Shown here: positions 15,660 through 61,764 of the stretch, one piece after another
Layout: each line of letters opens with the position of its first letter
How positions within the stretch are numbered: position 1 is the stretch's first letter
DNA from: an uncultured Ignavibacteriales bacterium
GTDB lineage: Bacteria; Zixibacteria; MSB-5A5; GN15; FEB-12
Length of the DNA: 64,000 nucleotides
Assembly: GCA_964571235.1 (NCBI GenBank)
Contig: CAZNAI010000003.1
Coordinates: forward strand, 656,700-720,699
Direction of reading: 5' to 3'
The notes under the pieces: generated by a model
What the model saw: the letters and a program-made list of their open reading frames with translations, nothing else
Database searches by the model: none
What the model was told of the DNA's origin: nothing
Made by a program: the position numbers and the translations under genes

Positions 15660-15705
15660 GGGCGGGGACGTACAGGATCACCCTCCTTGCATTTCGTGTT
15701 TTGTG

Positions 15706-15731
15706 GTTGGCGGACATTCCTGTCTGCCAAC
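15706..15731. repeat. hairpin upstream of the RAYT gene (cognate REP, inverted orientation)
   Basis: gttggcggacattcctgtctgccaac forms an 11-bp stem with one G-U pair and loop ttcc. Its reverse complement shares 17 nt with the two downstream copies. Confidence 0.8.
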
Positions 15732-15785
15732 ACTTCTTCTGGATCCATCTTGACTCTTGCTTCTCTCAGAGCCTATTTTTGAAGG

Positions 15786-16310
15786 GTGGCTCAAAACCGA
15801 GTATCCCTAAAAGGACCTGCGGCGGTTTTTGTAACGACTACCGTTAACAAGTGGATTCCCCTATTCGCCGAGAGTCGAATCGCGGAAGTACTGCTGGTTC
15901 AGATGCGCGAAACCCTGAACCGCTATCAGATCGCGACGATTGCATATGTGCTTATGCCGTCACACCTGCATGCAATATTTGGCTTTCCCGAAATCGAGGG
16001 GCTTTCCGAAGTAAAGCAGAAACTAAAGGGCCATTCGGCTCACCAGATTCGGCCATTGCTCACTCCCGCTCAACTAATGCTATTCTCCGTCAATGGAAGA
16101 TTCGCTCTCTGGATGCGCCGGTTCGATGATTTGATTATTTGGTCAGATACTCAATTCAAAATCAAGGCGGAGTATATTCACAACAATCCGGTGAAGGCTG
16201 GCATTGTCAATTCCGCAACTGAGTATCAATATTCGAGCGCACAAGACTGGCTATTGGGCACACCGGGGATTTTCCCGATTGACAAGACTTGGAAATGGCA
16301 ATCCGAGTGA
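15786..16310 (+). mobile_element. REP-associated tyrosine transposase (IS200/IS605 TnpA-like Y1 HUH enzyme)
   Basis: 174 aa. HUH motif in MPSHLHAIF. Catalytic Tyr motif AEYIHNNPVKAG. No TnpB partner. Flanked by inverted hairpins. Confidence 0.8.
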
Positions 16311-16325
16311 AATCCAACGCAAGAG

Positions 16326-16429
16326 GGCAAATTGAGCGCGGCGGACAGGAATGTCCGCCACGCACAAATACTCCGATGGGTGATAGAGCGAAATTTGAGC
16401 GCGGCGGACAAGAATGTCCGCCTCGCACA
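16326..16429. repeat. two direct copies of the RAYT-cognate hairpin (63-nt period)
   Basis: aaattgagcgcggcggacaggaatgtccgccacgcaca at 16328-16366. aaatttgagcgcggcggacaagaatgtccgcctcgcaca at 16391-16429. Confidence 0.85.
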
Positions 16430-19837: not shown

Positions 19838-19897
19838 GCGCTCCTCTGCTGGGCGGGTTCGTCTTTGAGCTCGCTAAAGTGACATTAGATTGAAGTG

Positions 19898-19931
19898 CCG
19901 TCAGGCCTCCCGGCCTGACGGCTTTTTTTTG
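19898..19931 (+). terminator. rho-independent terminator after secF (family-A-like hairpin)
   Basis: gccgtcaggcc-tccc-ggcctgacggc followed by an 8-T run. Confidence 0.8.
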
Positions 19932-36039: not shown

Positions 36040-36160
36040 ATCGTTGGGAGGAGCGACGTCGTCGGCGCGACAAAGCAATCTCGTGTGATTGTTTTGACTT
36101 TGCCGGAAGAAGAGATCGCCTCGCTCCGCTCGCAACGACAGAGAGGCGGGTTTCTCATCT
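36040..36160. repeat. interspersed repeat modules (reverse orientation of modules also seen inside pth)
   Basis: ggcgcgacaaagcaatc is close to the reverse complement of ggattgcttcgtcgcgcc at 45219. cgcctcgctccgctcgcaacgacagagaggcg is close to ggcgctcctcgcaacgacagag at 61405. Confidence 0.65.
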
Positions 36161-36232: not shown

Positions 36233-36679
36233 TCACTTCGGTTTTACTATCGGTGAATTGAGCGGGGCTCCCACGGCTATGTCACACCGATGGTTTGGCT
36301 GTCCGTGCGGTGGATTCATCCCCGGAGCAGTCGTGGTATTGGCCGTCTGGGCAGGGATATTCTGTTGCGGCGAATTTGGTAGCGCTTGTACAGTCCCCGG
36401 CGGTGAACTGAGCGGCGCTCCCACGGCTATATCACAACGATGGTTTGGCTGTCCGTGCGGTGGATTCATGCCCGGCGCGGTAGCTGATTCGACGGCAGTT
36501 TCATAAGGATTCATCACAGGGGAGGGCTGAACCGCAAGTGACTCAGACGATGCGGGGGCAGACTGTGTCATGCCGGCGTCGGACTCTGAACCCTTGCTCG
36601 CAGGGGTATCCGATGATTCCTTGCAGGCCATCGCAAAGACCATTAAGAGAATGAGAATCGTCAGGCTCATGCGCTTCAC
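36233..36679 (-). CDS. lipoprotein with duplicated NPPHGQPNHRCDIAVGAPL motif
   Basis: The GTG at 36679 lies 6 nt after AGGAGG. Lipobox in MKRMSLTILILLMVFAMAC. Two near-identical ~74-nt segments at 36252-36325 and 36402-36475. Confidence 0.7.
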   Translation of the reverse strand: MKRMSLTILILLMVFAMACKESSDTPASKGSESDAGMTQSAPASSESLAVQPSPVMNPYETAVESATAPGMNPPHGQPNHRCDIAVGAPLSSPPGTVQALPNSPQQNIPAQTANTTTAPGMNPPHGQPNHRCDIAVGAPLNSPIVKPK

Positions 36680-36895
36680 AAAAAACCTCCTGCTTTTGAT
36701 GGGTACACTTTTTGGGGGTCTCGAATCAAGGTAGGTGCAGTCGGCGGTTAAGTCAATCCAATGCTCTTTATTTATTCCCGAGGGGTCGTTCCCTCTTCTC
36801 ACTTTCGGGGTAATGCACCATTCGATGCGCAAAATGCAATCTCTCGACCCGAAAGTATCACTCCATTCGCTACCACTACTGCACTGCCAACGGAC

Positions 36896-41948: not shown

Positions 41949-41998
41949 TCAAATTGACTTCATGTCCAAACTGACTTCATGTCAAAATTGACTTCAGG
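41949..41998 (+). repeat. 17-nt tandem repeat x3
   Basis: tcaaattgacttcatg / tccaaactgacttcatg / tcaaaattgacttcagg. Confidence 0.8.
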
Positions 41999-42017
41999 CT
42001 GAGCCTGTCGAAGCCAC

Positions 42018-42320
42018 GTAGGTCGGGTTGCCAGCCCCGTTTACGGGGCGCAGCTACCCGACAATGTCGCGAGGCAAAGCATAGTAGGTCGGGTTGGCAA
42101 GTTACCCGCGTGAGCGGGGAACGCAGGCTACCCGACACTTTCTAAAACCGCAGATGTCGGGTAGACAAATCGTGTCGTCTCCGACGATTCGATTTGCCAA
42201 CCCGACCAACGAAGACTCGTCGTGGTGTCGGGCGTCCTCACCCGACACCGATTGCGGTCAGGTGGGGACGCCTGACCGCACGATATCGAATACGGCAGGA
42301 GCACAGGGCTCCTGCCCTAC
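42018..42320. repeat. BIME-like cluster of at least six REP-type hairpin units
   Basis: Family C units at 42018-42063, 42084-42137 and 42153-42210 (inverted). Short hairpin at 42224-42249. Family A hairpin at 42255-42279. GTAGGGCAGGAGCC hairpin at 42294-42320 (minus strand). Confidence 0.8.
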
Positions 42321-44131: not shown

Positions 44132-44869
44132 TCAGGTAATCCTCGACCAATAAACTGCGAAGAGCGTCAGGAGGGCGGCGGCGATGACGGTAAACCAGAT
44201 GAAGAACTCAGTCAACCGGCGGATATGGCCCGGGCCTTTGTACATGAGTGTGCGGAAGCCAAGAACACCGTCGAGAAGCATGTATGCCCCGAGCGCTAAC
44301 AGCACCGGAAGCGGGTTGAGGGTGCGGCAAGTGACATAGACAAGCCCTCGCGTGCCGATGTGGGTTGCCAAAGCGGCGATTCGCTCAATGATGCCCGATA
44401 TCCCCTCCCAGAAAAATCGCTGACCGCCCGGAAGTGTAGCAATAGTCGCCTCCAATGCGTTCGCCCCTTCCTCGAGTACCGTCCCCTTCAGAAGATTTGG
44501 CGTGGTTGCGACTACCCAGGCCTCAATCGCGCCGATGCCAGTGCCGAATGCGATCAATTGCCAGAGTGTCAGATCACGCAGAAAGATAAAGAAGACAACC
44601 GCCAATCCTAACTCGGTGATGCCGGAGATCAGGCCGTTTAACAAGGCGGATTTTTGTGTTGCGAGGGTTTCTCTTGGGAGGCGTTTCATCACGAGGGTGT
44701 GAAGGAGCATCTTGAGCATCACGCCGAATCCCCAGGAGCCGGAGCCCAGAATAAAATATTTCAGACGGACGTCGTGGGCGAAGTAGACGTACGCAACCGC
44801 GGCGGCACCGACCGCGATGCACCCGGCCTTGGCAATCGTCTCGTTGCGCTTGGTTATGGCATCGGACAT
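44132..44869 (-). CDS. polytopic membrane protein (possibly YhfC-like)
   Basis: ORF 44132..44929; the likely start is MSDAITK at 44869. About 7 TM segments. IIERIAALATH resembles intramembrane protease E/H motifs, but the family call is weak. Confidence 0.55.
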   Translation of the reverse strand: MSDAITKRNETIAKAGCIAVGAAAVAYVYFAHDVRLKYFILGSGSWGFGVMLKMLLHTLVMKRLPRETLATQKSALLNGLISGITELGLAVVFFIFLRDLTLWQLIAFGTGIGAIEAWVVATTPNLLKGTVLEEGANALEATIATLPGGQRFFWEGISGIIERIAALATHIGTRGLVYVTCRTLNPLPVLLALGAYMLLDGVLGFRTLMYKGPGHIRRLTEFFIWFTVIAAALLTLFAVYWSRIT

Positions 44870-44932
44870 GATGTGGATAGGATAGGGGATTATTTGAGAT
44901 CGGGCAAGGGGCAGAGAGTCCCGATACAAGGT

Positions 44933-45044: not shown

Positions 45045-45740
45045 ATGCTCACGCTCATCCTCGGCCTTGGCAATATCGGTAAGAAGTACGACAAGACGCG
45101 GCACAATCTCGGGTTTGAGGTTGTCGATCGGGTGGTGGAGAAGTTGGGGGCAGTGCGGCAGGAGGATGGGGAGTGTTATCAGTGGTGGAAGGGGGAGGTG
45201 GAGAGCCAAGACGAGGAGGGATTGCTTCGTCGCGCCGTCCTTCGACAGGCTCAGGATGACGGCGCTCCTCGCAATGACCAGCCAGATGGCTGGACCGAGG
45301 GGCTTCGCCGCTCACGATCTGTCTACTTTGCAAAACCCACCACCTATATGAATGGGTCGGGGGAGGCGGCGAAAGAGCTCATGGAGCAGTTGGGAATCAC
45401 GCCCGCTGAAATACTTGTGATCGTCGACGACTTTCAGATCCCGCTTGGCGCTGTCAGGTTTCGGCCGAATGGCTCGGATGGTGGCCACAATGGCCTCGTG
45501 TCGGTCATCGAAGAGCTTGGGACGCAAGCGTTTCCACGACTTCGGCTGGGGATCGGATTACCCCAAGACAAGGCCCAGGTAATCGATTATGTCCTCACTA
45601 AGTTCAACGCTGACGAAAAGCCCACCGTCGAGAAGATGCTTGCCATTGCCGGCGAAGGAGTTATATTTGCCCTCCAACATCGCCTGGAAAAGGTGATGTC
45701 GAAATACAACTTTAACCCTGCTCCACCGGACCTCGCTTGA
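45045..45740 (+). CDS. pth: peptidyl-tRNA hydrolase carrying an in-frame repeat-derived insertion
   Basis: MLTLILGLGNIGKKYDKTRHNLGF ... KPTTYMNGSGEA ... DGGHNGL. About 32 extra codons at 45219-45312 match the intergenic repeat modules. Confidence 0.85.
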   Translation: MLTLILGLGNIGKKYDKTRHNLGFEVVDRVVEKLGAVRQEDGECYQWWKGEVESQDEEGLLRRAVLRQAQDDGAPRNDQPDGWTEGLRRSRSVYFAKPTTYMNGSGEAAKELMEQLGITPAEILVIVDDFQIPLGAVRFRPNGSDGGHNGLVSVIEELGTQAFPRLRLGIGLPQDKAQVIDYVLTKFNADEKPTVEKMLAIAGEGVIFALQHRLEKVMSKYNFNPAPPDLA

Positions 45741-46313: not shown

Positions 46314-46372
46314 TTCGTTGAATCGCGTCTCGACTACGCTCGACGCGTCGCACCCATGATGGTGTATGGAAT

Positions 46373-46410
46373 GAAGATGTCGAAACCGCAGGGGTTTCGA
46401 CCTACAGAAG
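46373..46410 (-). repeat. family D REP (short form)
   Basis: gaagatgtcgaaaccgcaggggtttcgacctacagaag. Further copies at 57966 and 58442. Confidence 0.75.
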
Positions 46411-46423
46411 ACAAAGAGTGAAA

Positions 46424-46545
46424 GTAGGTCGGGTTCTGAGAGAGTTCGCCGTGGCGAACGAGCGAAAAACCCGACATCGATGTGATTGAAAAATTAGTGT
46501 CGGGTTTCTTGTCCCGCCAAAGCGGGACGACGGAACCCGACCTAC
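46424..46545. repeat. REPIN-like inverted doublet of family C REPs
   Basis: GTAGGTCGGGTTC...AAAACCCGACATC followed by GTGTCGGGTTTC...GGAACCCGACCTAC. Confidence 0.8.
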
Positions 46546-46570
46546 GAAGAGAGAAAATCAGGAGTTTGAA

Positions 46571-53473: not shown

Positions 53474-53563
53474 AGGGACTCCGCTCTAAAGTGTTGATAT
53501 CATCTTAACACCAGCAAGTAGCAATTGTTTCGAAGGTGGTAAGGTCGATAGTCTAACTAAGAA

Positions 53564-53767
53564 ACGCCCTTCGACTCCGCTCAGGGCGACGTTCCGATCA
53601 GCGCAACATCAGGTTGGTATGCGAGTACGCTTTGGCAACCATGTTTTTCTCGTGTGCTGGGAAACTGAATAGTGTCAAACAGCACATTCGATGGGCGCGT
53701 TAGCGTCGGGCTGAGCGGAGTCGAAGCCCGTTCTCATTGGCGTCAGGCCAGGAGGCCTGACGCCACG
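53564..53767. repeat. MITE-like element (family E) plus family A hairpin
   Basis: Left arm 53564-53602 and right arm 53687-53735 contain a 16-bp perfect inverted repeat, cttcgactccgctcag/ctgagcggagtcgaag. Hairpin ggcgtcaggccaggaggcctgacgcc lies at 53738-53767. Confidence 0.8.
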
Positions 53768-56065: not shown

Positions 56066-56290
56066 TACATATGTAAGGTACCAACGGGGGGTGGTATTTG
56101 CAAGCAAAAAACTCGATCTATGCCGTTGGGGGACAGCCATTTGCGGCGATGTGATCGGGGTGTTTTTGGGGTATTTTGCGATAGGCGAAATCGCTACGCG
56201 AGAAAGTCATTCCGGTTTGAAAAAGAGAGGGAATAGTGGATATTGGGGGAGAGGATGTGGAATGAAAACGAAAGCTGGAAAAATGCTCTT

Positions 56291-57049
56291 ATGAAATATT
56301 CAGCGGCAATAGCTCTCTGCCTTTGTGGCGCTTTGATTGCGATTTCGCCGGGGTCAATTCGAGCTGCGGATCGCTCTAGGTTAGAGTTCATTAAACCAAA
56401 CGTTGTCGATTCAGCGTGGCTCTGGAGCCATGTGTACTACACACAGAGTCCACTCCAAAAGGGAAAATATCAGATACTAGTGCGGAACTACGAAGAATCG
56501 AAAAGGTTTCTTCCGATTTGGGAGGAGTCCTTTATGCGTCTGAATCTATGGTCTCAATCTTATTTCGATAAACACATTCGCATCCTAACCGCCGGGATTG
56601 ACACCGCTAAGTGGGAAGGTCGAAACGAGCTACGATTCACTATAAGCTACGATTATGTCTTTGATTGGGTAAGACTTCGTTGTGTGGATCGGTTTGTTGT
56701 AGGCGTTGACTCTGCACTAACTACCTTGAAGGTTGAGGACATTGTTAATTCGTCAGGGCCAGGCATGCTAGTTGATGCCAACTTCAGTCGGCCCGTACTT
56801 ATCACTCGCGTACGACCATCAACAACGATTGCGTCTCGCAAGGCAATAGAAGGTGCACTCAAGCGAAATTGCTCGAATGAGAAAACAACTTTCAAAGCTA
56901 CGCTGTCGATTCTTCAAGATGGGTCGGACATAGTTGCGAGCATGAGGTCGGACGATTCCATTAAACCACTATGTGCTGAGTACCTGCTTTTCGACAAAAA
57001 ATATTCAGGTTTGAGCGAATGCCCTGAGGAAACAGTCATCTTTGAATAA
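56291..57049 (+). CDS. hypothetical secreted protein
   Basis: ORF 56243..57049. The ATG at 56291 gives signal peptide MKYSAAIALCLCGALIAISPGSIRA. No family recognised. Confidence 0.5.
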   Translation: MKYSAAIALCLCGALIAISPGSIRAADRSRLEFIKPNVVDSAWLWSHVYYTQSPLQKGKYQILVRNYEESKRFLPIWEESFMRLNLWSQSYFDKHIRILTAGIDTAKWEGRNELRFTISYDYVFDWVRLRCVDRFVVGVDSALTTLKVEDIVNSSGPGMLVDANFSRPVLITRVRPSTTIASRKAIEGALKRNCSNEKTTFKATLSILQDGSDIVASMRSDDSIKPLCAEYLLFDKKYSGLSECPEETVIFE

Positions 57050-57056
57050 GAATACT

Positions 57057-57164
57057 TGGGACGGGCGCGATGATCAGGGGCGCGAGGTGGCCAGCGGGGT
57101 GTATCTGTATCGCCTGACCGCAGGCGGCGTGACGCAAGAGAAGAAGATGGTGTTGGTGCGGTAG
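57057..57164 (+). pseudogene. orphan C-terminal FlgD-Ig/T9SS-type sorting-domain fragment
   Basis: Translates to WDGRDDQGREVASGVYLYRLTAGGVTQEKKMVLVR then a stop. An in-frame stop lies immediately upstream and there is no start codon. Confidence 0.6.
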
Positions 57165-57201
57165 CCAGCCATATGGCTGGACCTTGGGGCTTCGCCGCTT
57201 T
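57161..57201 (+). repeat. GTAG plus 16-nt perfect palindrome (family H)
   Basis: GTAGCCAGCCATATGGCTGGaccttggggcttcgccgct. A near-identical module sits inside pth at 45278-45312. Confidence 0.75.
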
Positions 57202-57408: not shown

Positions 57409-57491
57409 CTTCGTCGCCTCGAGCGGAGTCGAGAGGAGACGCGGTGGATATCAGTCAGACACGCCGTGTCTCGTCTCCGCTCGACACGACG
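57409..57491 (+). repeat. family F repeat, left copy flanking the GIY-YIG gene
   Basis: ttcgtcgcctcgagcggagtcgagagg...cgtgtctcgtctccgctcgacacgacg. A partial third copy lies at 57246-57280. Confidence 0.85.
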
Positions 57492-57866: not shown

Positions 57867-57948
57867 TTCGTCGCCTCGAGCGGAGTCGAGAGGTGACGCG
57901 CCGGATATCAGTCAAACACGCTGTGTCTCGTCTCCGCTCGACACGACG
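57867..57948 (+). repeat. family F repeat, right copy flanking the GIY-YIG gene
   Basis: Same orientation as 57409-57491, with about five mismatches by eye over ~82 nt. Confidence 0.85.
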
Positions 57949-57999: not shown

Positions 58000-58441
58000 A
58001 CTGGTCTCTGAACCGGGACAATGGAAGTGGTCGAATTGTGGATGGTACGAGGGAAGAAGAGATGGACCACGGGAAATTGACGCGATTGAGATTTGAGGGT
58101 AGCGGTCGGATTAAGGGATCCCACAGCAAGCTGTGGGGCACCGAAGAGAACCAATGCGCGAATGCCTATCAATTTTCATACAAATCTCATGTAGTCAACG
58201 AATCGGCAAGTTCTGGTATGAAGACCTCGATACACAACTCGCCTATGTTACGAAATCCTGCCGTGCAATTTTACTACAAGATCTATGCGACGACGTCACA
58301 ATCCCGAAAATACCCGAATCATCACAACCGCCACTGCAATAACCAATTGCGATCAAAGAAAACAATTCGTGAAATGCAAAAGTGTACAAACGAAGCCAAA
58401 AAGAAACCCACCATAATTGGTGATCCACATAGAAAAAGAAA

Positions 58442-58475
58442 AGTGTCGAAACCGCAGGGGTATAGACCTACAAAG
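58442..58475 (-). repeat. family D REP (short form, degenerate)
   Basis: agtgtcgaaaccgcaggggtatagacctacaaag. Confidence 0.7.
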
Positions 58476-58496
58476 GAGAGCTACACAAACAAAGAG

Positions 58497-58751
58497 ACGC
58501 CCTTCGACTCCGCTCAGGGCGACGTTCCGATCAGCTCGACCGTGGTTAGCGCGTGGGTGCAGTTCTGCTACTCTTCGTTCGGTAGTAGCATCGACGAAAG
58601 GCCTTCGTCAAATCAAGAATTGGATGAGCGCGTCAGCGTCGGGCTGAGCGGAGTCGAAGCCCGTTTCTCTTGATCATCATGTTACAAAAAAAGCGTCAGG
58701 TGGGGGCACCTGACGCCACGTATACGACCCTTCGACAGGCTCAGGGTGAAG
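58497..58751. repeat. MITE-like element (family E), family A hairpin and G module
   Basis: Left arm 58497-58535 (38-39 nt identical to 53564-53602). Right arm 58620-58669. Hairpin gcgtcaggtgggggcacctgacgc at 58693-58720. cccttcgacaggctcagggtgaag at 58728-58751. Confidence 0.8.
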
Positions 58752-58772
58752 TCAAATTTGTTCGACGCGTTA

Positions 58773-61161: not shown

Positions 61162-61428
61162 CACGTTTACCTCTGTGAAGTGTTCCACCTTTTGAGATGC
61201 AAAGAGGTTGCCGAGATGGAGGGGATTGTAGGCCGTTGCGAGAGAAGAGGATGCAAGCGGCACGGGGGCGTTGCCACGAAATTCACGTTGGCAAGTGTTG
61301 GAGGGTTCCAAGAGATCGGTGGGGAAAAGTACCCCACGATAAATCGTGGGCCACCAGAACTAAGATGAATCAGAAAGCAGAGATTGCGTCGTCGCGCCGA
61401 GGACGGCGCTCCTCGCAACGACAGAGAA

Positions 61429-61764
61429 TCAGGCTTTGAAGATCAGGAAGATTGAGCAGAGAACGGCTGTTACCGGCAGGGCGGCGGCAAATGAGACCGG
61501 TAGCAATAGAGTTGCAAGAAAGGCCAGCGCTATTGCAGGAAGCACGAGATACTTGATGGTAGCGATAGCCAGGCGAACGAGTTGAGTAAGTAGATAGAAA
61601 ACGAGCACGCCGCCGATAATCAGCCCGGCGATCAGGCCGTTATTACCGAAATGATCGATAATCCAGCTTTTGAGCGACAGGAGCGGTCCGGCGCCCAAGT
61701 CGAAGAACTGACTACACCACTGGCCAATACTTGAAAATGTTGAACTCAGATCAGAAAGGGGCAT
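61429..61764 (-). CDS. hypothetical membrane protein
   Basis: 111 aa. GGAGGA lies upstream of the ATG. 2-3 TM helices. Confidence 0.5.
   Translation of the reverse strand: MPLSDLSSTFSSIGQWCSQFFDLGAGPLLSLKSWIIDHFGNNGLIAGLIIGGVLVFYLLTQLVRLAIATIKYLVLPAIALAFLATLLLPVSFAAALPVTAVLCSIFLIFKA

Follow-up and report, generated by a model that had tools for sequence, protein, structure and literature searches.

In a 64,000-nucleotide (nt) stretch of contig CAZNAI010000003.1 (the window, to which all positions refer), the gene for peptidyl-tRNA hydrolase (pth) carries an in-frame insert made of hairpin repeats whose other copies lie between genes. The homologues of the window Pth belonged to candidate division Zixibacteria. 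Very probably, selfish hairpin repeats have colonised a surface turn of Pth in frame, the host has tolerated them, and their turnover continues. The original prediction, made from the letters of the window, had placed an intergenic-type repeat mosaic in frame inside pth. This was confirmed, and the gene, the frame and the start at codon 59 were all correct. The gene and its insert are:

45045..45740, plus strand: pth coding sequence (CDS), 231 amino acids (aa), an intact open reading frame (ORF) supported by Pfam PF01195, synteny and the ratio of nonsynonymous to synonymous substitution rates (dN/dS) of its core.
45204..45314, plus strand: in-frame repeat-derived insert, residues ~54-90 (SQDEEGLLRRAVLRQAQDDGAPRNDQPDGWTEGLRRS), absent in orthologues L011 and L012 and supported by the AlphaFold model.

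Residues G59-R89 of Pth read GLLRRAVLRQAQDDGAPRNDQPDGWTEGLRR, codon 59 begins at 45219, and the peptide string LLRRAVLRQAQDDGAPR belongs to the same region. Module copies were counted across the window at no more than three mismatches, and the chance expectation was taken from dinucleotide shuffles. The four modules proposed for this region each recurred at least once elsewhere in the window, whereas 0.00-0.06 matches were expected. Module 1 (GGATTGCTTCGTCGCGCC) recurred at 36064-36081 (-) and 61381-61398 (+), module 2 (CCTTCGACAGGCTCAGGATGAC) at 58729-58750 and, inverted, at 41983-42020, module 3 (GGCGCTCCTCGCAATGAC) at 61405-61422, and module 4, a 35-mer, at 57165-57199. The sites that had been named were real, although their coordinates were off by 1-10 nt, and the copy placed at 36119 was only a looser relative (36112-36139) that reads GAGATCGC...CTCGCAACGAC. 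Every comparator copy sat in a gap between confident genes. When all intergenic mosaics were compared with the window by reciprocal blastn, no CDS was matched except the pth insert; the spacer just 5' of pth was matched as well. The inserted segment belongs to dispersed palindromic repeat families with extragenic copies.

The sequences and copies of the four modules stood, but they represent three elements. The intergenic copy at 61381-61422 reads AGATTGCGTCGTCGCGCC-GAGGAC-GGCGCTCCTCGCAACGAC, indicating that a single 42-nt hairpin, element A, has module 1 as its 5' arm and module 3 as its 3' arm. In pth, the 24-nt element B (module 2) stands in place of the six-base loop of element A, and because element B has copies of its own at 58729 and 41983, the arrangement in pth is a nested one. 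The elements and their intergenic copies are:

45219..45278, plus strand: element A, a hairpin with constant arms GGATTGCTTCG...CTCGCAATGAC, 60 nt with the nested element, encoding GLLRRAVLRQAQDDGAPRND; supported by the match of its arms to 61381-61422 and by the hairpin fold.
45237..45260, plus strand: element B (GTCCTTCGACAGGCTCAGGATGAC), 24 nt, in the apical loop of element A, encoding VLRQAQDD; copies at 58729-58750 (+) and 41983-42020 (-).
45278..45312, plus strand: element C', a 16-nt palindrome CCAGCCAGATGGCTGG with the tail ACCGAGGGGCTTCGCCGCT, encoding QPDGWTEGLRR; 91% identical copy at 57165-57199, DNA hairpin z-score -3.2.
61381..61422, plus strand: element A without nesting, 42 nt, intergenic; the neighbouring ORFs end at 61311 and begin at 61429.
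36041..36139, both strands: intergenic A-type pair in opposite orientation (36041-36081, minus, and the A-like 36112-36139, plus), in the 298-nt gap after glnA.
58723..58760, plus strand: intergenic element B with flanks; inverted partner at 41983-42020; 97% identical to a module in the L005 pth.
57165..57199, plus strand: intergenic copy of element C', from the repeat comparison within the window.

The predicted DNA or RNA hairpins of the insert elements had perfect stems and modest energy z-scores (-1.2 to -3.2).

The gene order HisKA kinase - response regulator - (variable) - pth - rpsF - rpsR - DUF2232 - rplI was found in 11 of 11 relatives, indicating that these are true orthologues. We measured the variable segment of Pth as the residues between the conserved WW and (L/F)AKP anchors in the window and in these 11 relatives with DNA. 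Its length was 10 residues in L012, 14 in L011, 33 in L010, 42 in L008, 43 in L003, 46 in the window, 54 in L001, 55 in L002, 80 in both L005 and L009, 99 in L006 and 104 in L007. The syntenic orthologues P0012-P0015 (62-65% identical, 195-217 aa) had 10-14 residues at the segment as compared with 46 in the window, and the length of an insert-less orthologue was 195 aa. Alignment with orthologues, which had been suggested as a check, therefore delimited the insert, and repeat-poor orthologues were found to lack the segment.

The extra DNA of each insert-bearing relative was a string of hairpin modules. These modules were 90-100% identical to window intergenic mosaics, for example at 58115-58144, 58726-58756 and 53565-53588, and also at 61382-61422, 16400-16428 and 19890-19922. 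The L001 pth had an un-nested 42-nt element A at the same place, 97.6% identical to 61382-61422. The nearest allele, L005 (dS 0.16), had elements A and B in common with the window and differed downstream: in place of element C' it had an extra spacer, the palindrome CCCACAGCAAGCTGTGGG, a further B-type element and more sequence. At the C' part of the insert, L005 and L006 both had CCCACAGCAAGCTGTGGG and then the same ACCGAGG. A similar nested A/B arrangement occurred in the L007 pth, in an Anaerolineae genome (L032) and in a Patescibacteria genome (L090). Of 120 homologues in a broader collection, 68 could be parsed, and in 46 of these the segment had its baseline length of 39 aa; more distant homologues were also expanded in independent-looking ways, and P0039 bore a THSKLWGT module. 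This variation in length and modules indicates that the turn is a recurrent and still changing insertion site rather than the seat of a private accident. The window insert is one state of a hypervariable site that a whole clade has in common.

The exact combination of modules is private to this lineage. For the 42-aa insert peptide, neither a word-indexed search of 5.8 billion proteins nor a phmmer search of 1.8 billion cluster representatives gave a candidate; a module by itself is too short to be found in this way.

These comparisons bear on the possibility that the segment is an ancestral loop, that its resemblance to repeats is due to chance or composition, or that the assembly is chimeric. 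The modules are indeed short (18-35 nt) and rich in G+C, as chance resemblance would have them, but the shuffles yielded almost none of the matches. The near-identity of the 41 nt of element A shared by the L001 pth and the window intergenic copy, together with the existence of insert-less orthologues, argues against chance and against an ancestral loop. Related inserts in independent assemblies from NCBI, ENA, JGI and Logan argue against a chimera. The orthologue comparison thus already refutes this explanation, and we regard all three variants as extremely improbable.

The region 5' of pth also varied. It held a GIY-YIG domain ORF in L012 (L012:2237-2524), an AAA_15/AAA_21 ATPase with a partner gene in L009 (L009:2208-3976), and a membrane-like ORF without Pfam match on the opposite strand in the window (44132-44929).

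Purifying selection acts on the core of pth: with the insert left out, dN/dS (Nei-Gojobori) was 0.08-0.19 against each of the 11 relatives. Pfam PF01195 (Pept_tRNA_hydro) covered residues 4-222 of the window Pth (E 7e-56). The catalytic set N10, H20, N68, D93 and N114 of E. coli Pth, which we take to correspond to N10, H20, N103, D128/129 and N149 of the window protein, was invariant or nearly so in an 83-sequence alignment, and H148 beside N149 was likewise counted among the conserved catalytic positions. The AlphaFold2 model of the window Pth had a mean predicted local distance difference test score (pLDDT) of 91. Strands modelled at 45-53 and 90-98 flanked the insert (54-89), which was modelled as a helix at 57-71 (pLDDT ~80) and then as coil at 72-89 (pLDDT ~70). 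Comparison of the model with solved Pth structures by Foldseek gave template modelling (TM) scores of 0.92 (target-normalised) and 0.75 (query-normalised), as expected for an intact core with ~36 extra residues, and the sequence matches to the solved structures broke into two blocks around residues 42-90. In accord with the surface hairpin that had been predicted, the insert falls, in the model, where the beta2-beta3 hairpin turns, in a surface position compatible with the Pth fold; by analogy with the topology of E. coli Pth, this turn would lie far from the active site. No sign of an intein or self-splicing intron was obtained, as Pfam gave only Pept_tRNA_hydro in the protein, Rfam gave no gathering-level match in the window, and the insert has ~37 aa.

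As had been supposed, the frame is open and the insert-bearing pth looks functional. If this copy were instead a pseudogene or a decaying copy, Pth function would come from another gene. Our view was limited to the window, and an exact-protein look-up returned no record of the window Pth, which leaves some room for this explanation. It is highly unlikely, because neither the ORF nor its set of catalytic residues is disrupted, the low dN/dS extends to all insert-bearing lineages, the rpsF/rpsR operon synteny is conserved and the fold is predicted with confidence. The copy is thus not decaying.

Within pth, element A has evolved as a hairpin. It occupied one common reading frame in eight pth orthologues, and each of the five un-nested pth copies was exactly 42 nt long. 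The apical stems of the un-nested copies (GCGCC/GGCGC, GTCGCCC/GGGCGAC, TCCGGCG/CGCCGGA, TCACGCG/CGCGTGA and ATGACCC/GGGTCAT) differed from one another, yet all were perfectly complementary. Covariation was compared in L003, L006 and L009, which share the same stem register, the other copies being in different registers. Among these three stems, 3 of 7 pairs were altered on both sides and 0 of 7 on one side only, and the encoded peptide meanwhile shifted from RSPEAGDS to RSGDAPET to RSREARDT. Stems that stay paired while the peptide drifts indicate that the insert evolves as a hairpin and not as a peptide, so the constraint would act at the nucleic-acid level rather than the protein level. Either selection acts on the structure of the DNA or RNA, or the insert is replaced from copies elsewhere in the genome.

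The insert could also have been co-opted, either as useful Pth surface (for example an arginine-rich helix that touches tRNA or the ribosome) or as hairpins that control the pth-rpsF-rpsR transcript, whether by mRNA stability, by pausing or by attenuation. Its maintenance in frame in at least 10 lineages at dS >1 and the helix modelled at residues 57-71 would suit co-option; stem changes on both sides that preserve complementarity are expected under selection on an RNA or DNA hairpin. However, length (33-104 aa), modules and peptide differ among close orthologues, and sister lineages have no insert. The same element is also found in unrelated enzymes and in intergenic DNA, and nothing homologous to the 42-aa peptide was detected elsewhere. 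Co-option is therefore unlikely, although less so than a pseudogene or a chance resemblance.

A gene in the window encodes an enzyme that may mobilise one of the hairpin families, a REP-associated tyrosine transposase (RAYT; REP, repetitive extragenic palindrome):

15786..16310, plus strand: RAYT gene (HUH/Y1 family), candidate mobilising enzyme for one hairpin family; supported by Y1_Tnp and NF047646.
15702..16429, both strands: inverted REP hairpins GGCGGACAGGAATGTCCGCC with a GCACA-type tail beside the RAYT gene, at 15702-15728 (-), 16340-16366 (+) and 16403-16429 (+).

The RAYT protein scored 100.2 bits with the NCBIfam equivalog NF047646 (cut-off 80) and 27.7 bits with Pfam Y1_Tnp, and it bears an HLH (HUH) motif. 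The REP pattern had 5 matches in the window as compared with 0.01 expected; at no more than three mismatches, the only window copies of the RAYT-flanking REP were the three beside the gene. The right-hand REP unit was duplicated with a spacing of 63 nt. The RAYT gene and its inverted REPs (15702-16429) are a complete REPtron. Three relatives, L003, L006 and L010, carried members of the RAYT-flanking REP family in their pth inserts, and more degenerate copies that keep the tail occurred in those of L007 and L008. By comparison with L003, CAAGACGAGGAG at 45207-45218 of the window is at most a possible remnant of a REP tail. The modules of the pth insert may have been mobilised by the window RAYT.

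Taken together, we propose the following explanation. Several hairpin families resembling REPs or Rickettsia palindromic elements (RPEs) would normally gather as intergenic mosaics in this Zixibacteria lineage, and the same repeats would also have entered the DNA for the beta2-beta3 turn of Pth. The window insert consists of the 42-nt element A with its constant arms and variable apical stem, element B nested in the apical loop of A, and the palindrome-plus-tail element C'. Because its length is a multiple of three, it has no stops and it falls in an exposed turn far from the catalytic residues, the insert would be translated and tolerated and the enzyme would remain functional; the insert is presumably neutral or nearly so. 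The occupied site would keep changing, as orthologues have 33-104 residues from differing combinations of the same repertoire. This variety suggests that hairpins attract insertion, nesting, replacement or deletion. The turnover may be driven by single-strand transposition of the RAYT type or by recombination between copies. We know of no dedicated enzyme for elements A and B.

Several observations weigh against this explanation. Presence/absence polymorphism within one population was not found, and L005 shares the left part of the insert. Alleles without the insert, which had been sought as a check, were not recovered: a metagenome scan for close pth alleles gave relatives at 30-39% identity only and no insert-free allele of the same population. 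Target-site duplications were not seen. The RAYT-flanking REP had no clear copy in the window pth insert at no more than three mismatches, and no enzyme could be assigned to elements A, B or C'. A second forward frame in the ORF list was likewise open across the insert, so openness of an ORF is weak evidence of translation, and we infer translation of the insert from the integrity of the ORF. A second pth elsewhere in the genome would lie outside the 64,000 nt in view. Finally, the compensatory changes in the stems could have arisen because the hairpin has a selected role in the mRNA, and not through selfish maintenance.

If selfish repeats did colonise the turn, they can reshape even a small, essential, single-domain enzyme. 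The orthologue series, with 0 to 94 extra residues at one turn, would then be a natural experiment on the tolerance of a loop for foreign peptide. Such inserts would also inflate and mislead protein alignments and annotation in metagenome-assembled genomes.

Element A was not confined to Zixibacteria. A 596-Gb collection with one genome per species was scanned with the pattern GATTGCKTCG-N(8-38)-CTCGCAAYGAC, which gave at least 120 loci (L013-L132), whereas ~34 chance matches were calculated for the whole collection. Among the matches listed were Alpha- and Gammaproteobacteria, including many Bradyrhizobium and complete isolate genomes, and Bacteroidota, Cyanobacteria, Chloroflexota, Planctomycetota, Patescibacteria, Omnitrophota, Ignavibacteriota and Zixibacteria, as well as Helicobacter, a Rickettsiaceae endosymbiont and others. 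The arms GATTGCTTCG...CTCGCAATGAC with a variable apical hairpin were found in many phyla and in IMG/VR viral contigs (L172 onwards), where the same pattern had at least 120 matches. Among the matches listed, the 10-11 nt arms were essentially invariant across more than 15 phyla and the apical stem evolved freely. The 152 genome copies in this set had 122 distinct apical sequences, and a closing apical stem of at least 4 bp was present in 22% of copies as compared with 2% after shuffling. The base before GTC was C or T in 140 of these 152 copies, and the tail was CCAG, CCAT or CCAC in 55. In Chloroflexus (L018:1350-1870), element A formed tandem arrays with a period of ~51 nt.

Element A also recurred in frame in essential enzymes other than Pth, with Pfam matches on both sides:

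L063:4073-5743: GMP synthase (GuaA), two element A copies in the glutamine amidotransferase (GATase) domain.
L105:2352-6242: FGAM synthase (PurL) with element A.
L118:867-1808: 16S rRNA dimethyltransferase (RsmA/KsgA) with element A.
L109:1184-3091: ATP-dependent DNA ligase with element A.

The inserts of the FGAM synthase and the ligase also held the repeat-derived peptides RLRQAQ, GADLQSVPT and RSPRGVYTEFVERARGD. A phage portal protein is a possible further host: in an SPP1-type portal (L212:7921-9507, minus strand), ~60 residues resembling translated hairpin repeats (VIASPSPSVILSPSPPVILTLNEVKGKDL...GIATSPRFSGASRND) lay N-terminal to the Pfam-matched part.

No gene was found to travel with element A. 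The ORF clusters from the 120 listed loci were generic (ABC transporter, response regulator, short-chain dehydrogenase, GGDEF protein), and each was present in no more than 10 loci. In the viral contigs, the top ORF cluster was the translated repeat itself, and the remaining large clusters that were inspected held common structural proteins of phages (e.g. portal) from one group of related phages. Element A has no Rfam family; an E-value search of Rfam with its Chloroflexus array gave chance-level microRNA matches only. We also tried to join elements A and B in one superfamily with the generalised pattern GTCAT-NNN-GAG...GAA-N'N'N'-AT. Nearly all matches were A-type, and as the loci had been chosen for element A, the result cannot support such a superfamily.

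It is conceivable, but on balance doubtful, that element A (GTCATTGCGAG - free apical hairpin - CGAAGCAATC) is an uncatalogued, pan-bacterial and partly virus-borne hairpin element. If it were, it would have to be upheld by a conserved trans-acting machinery or by frequent horizontal transfer, and it would be a general source of new protein loops; the pth turn of Zixibacteria would then be a natural 'landing pad' that exposes its dynamics.

Other repeats were noted in the window. The rpsF-rpsR spacer (46314-46570) was 257 nt long and filled with GTAG-type hairpins (TGTAGGTCGAAACCCCTGCGGTTTCGACA, GTAGGTCGGGTTC...), whereas in L009, L011 and L012 it measured only 3-15 nt, indicating that the repeat load differs strongly among relatives. 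Downstream of glnA, an 81-nt direct repeat (36251-36331 and 36401-36481; 91% identical, 150 nt apart) had no Rfam match and overlapped an unannotated minus-strand ORF (36233-36832) without Pfam match. Two composite repeats were built from a CCCTTCGACTCCGCTCAGGGCG hairpin and its inverse, one at 57410-57491 and 57867-57948 (82 nt, 94% identity) and the other at 53555-53732 and 58488-58665 (53-nt and 47-nt blocks, 92-94%, 4933 nt apart). ORFs across the composite-repeat regions (e.g. 58038-58673), which had no Pfam match, are probably spurious. A short open stretch at 57000-57164 ended in ...GVYLYRLTAGGVTQEKKMVLVR and a stop codon; it was preceded by stop codons and was out of frame with the ORF at 56243-57049. 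It resembles what we take to be the end of a C-terminal secretion-sorting domain and is possibly a frameshifted or decayed gene. The intergenic copy of element C' (57165) begins right after its stop codon.

Insertion of palindromic repeats into genes has precedents. RPEs are palindromic repeats that lie in frame in housekeeping genes of Rickettsia (Ogata et al. 2000, 2002, as recounted in PMC10969869). This was generalised by Di Nocera et al. (2013; PMC3733652), who divided REPs into two superfamilies by their GTAG or CGTC tag, and according to the same paper intragenic REPs occur in many species as singles, dimers or clusters that encode 43-82 aa. The hosts named for intragenic REPs and RPEs include dnaE, uvrA/B, aminoacyl-tRNA synthetases, truB and ksgA (PMC3733652; PMC10969869). 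The word 'peptidyl' was absent from the supplementary tables of PMC3733652, and pth was not among the hosts listed there. The pth insert resembles these cases in that short, palindromic, dispersed repeats lie in frame in a housekeeping gene, are missing in orthologues and are compatible with the fold. It differs in phylum (Zixibacteria) and gene, in combining at least three unrelated families in a nested mosaic, and in a site that is filled differently in ~10 orthologues. The peptides differ as well: those published for CGTC-1, -3 and -4 (VIPAKAGI, DSRFRGND, VIAGLDPAIH, VIPWLDHGI; PMC3733652) are unlike the element A peptides, and those of RPE-4 and RPE-6 (CGTC-4 and CGTC-1), the two RPEs compared from the supplement of PMC3733652, are unlike those of elements A, B and C'.

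Element A shares several features with CGTC REPs. Its stem begins with A and T (ATTGC/GCAAT), a CCA-like tail is common, and the pair at 36041-36139 is arranged head to head. Furthermore, it is abundant in Bradyrhizobium and other Alphaproteobacteria, with no dedicated transposase gene nearby, and CGTC repeats are likewise described as lacking a dedicated transposase (PMC3733652). In the described CGTC families, 8-9 bp pair without interruption around a loop of 4-5 nt (PMC3733652), whereas in element A the basal stem has only 5 bp, the internal loop is conserved, and the apical stem is free to take any sequence and length (inner part 8-38 nt). The superfamily ends in a CGTC tag or in TGTC or CCTC, and here the picture for element A is mixed: in the GTCATTGCGAG orientation, 140 of the 152 copies among the matches listed have CGTC or TGTC, the window pth copy has GGTC and the L001 pth copy CGTC. 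Element A, which was set apart from the CGTC families by their described features, may equal CGTC-2. Its presence across phyla offers a handle on what mobilises 'orphan' CGTC-type repeats.

In REPtrons and REPINs, REPs are mobilised by RAYT, an IS200/IS605-like HUH tyrosine transposase (Bertels & Rainey 2011, PMC3116915; PMC3733652). The window RAYT is flanked by its own inverted hairpins, as in REPtrons, and this hairpin family is among the pth modules of relatives; the tag of its palindrome is GTGG or TTGG and not GTAG. Nesting of the kind seen in pth has a reported parallel in the small dispersed repeats (SDR) of Nostoc, 21-27 nt long, which Elhai et al. are said to have described in 2008 as inserting into hairpins of other repeats. 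The likeness, drawn from description only, lies in the nested hairpins; the SDR are cyanobacterial families of other sequence.

A literature search by peptide signatures and DNA strings returned irrelevant matches only. As far as checked, the phylum and host gene, the multi-family nested mosaic, the ~10 differently filled orthologue sites and the wide range of element A have not been described before. In-frame insertion of REPs and RPEs itself has already been described, and the pth mosaic is a further case of it, in a new phylum and a new gene.

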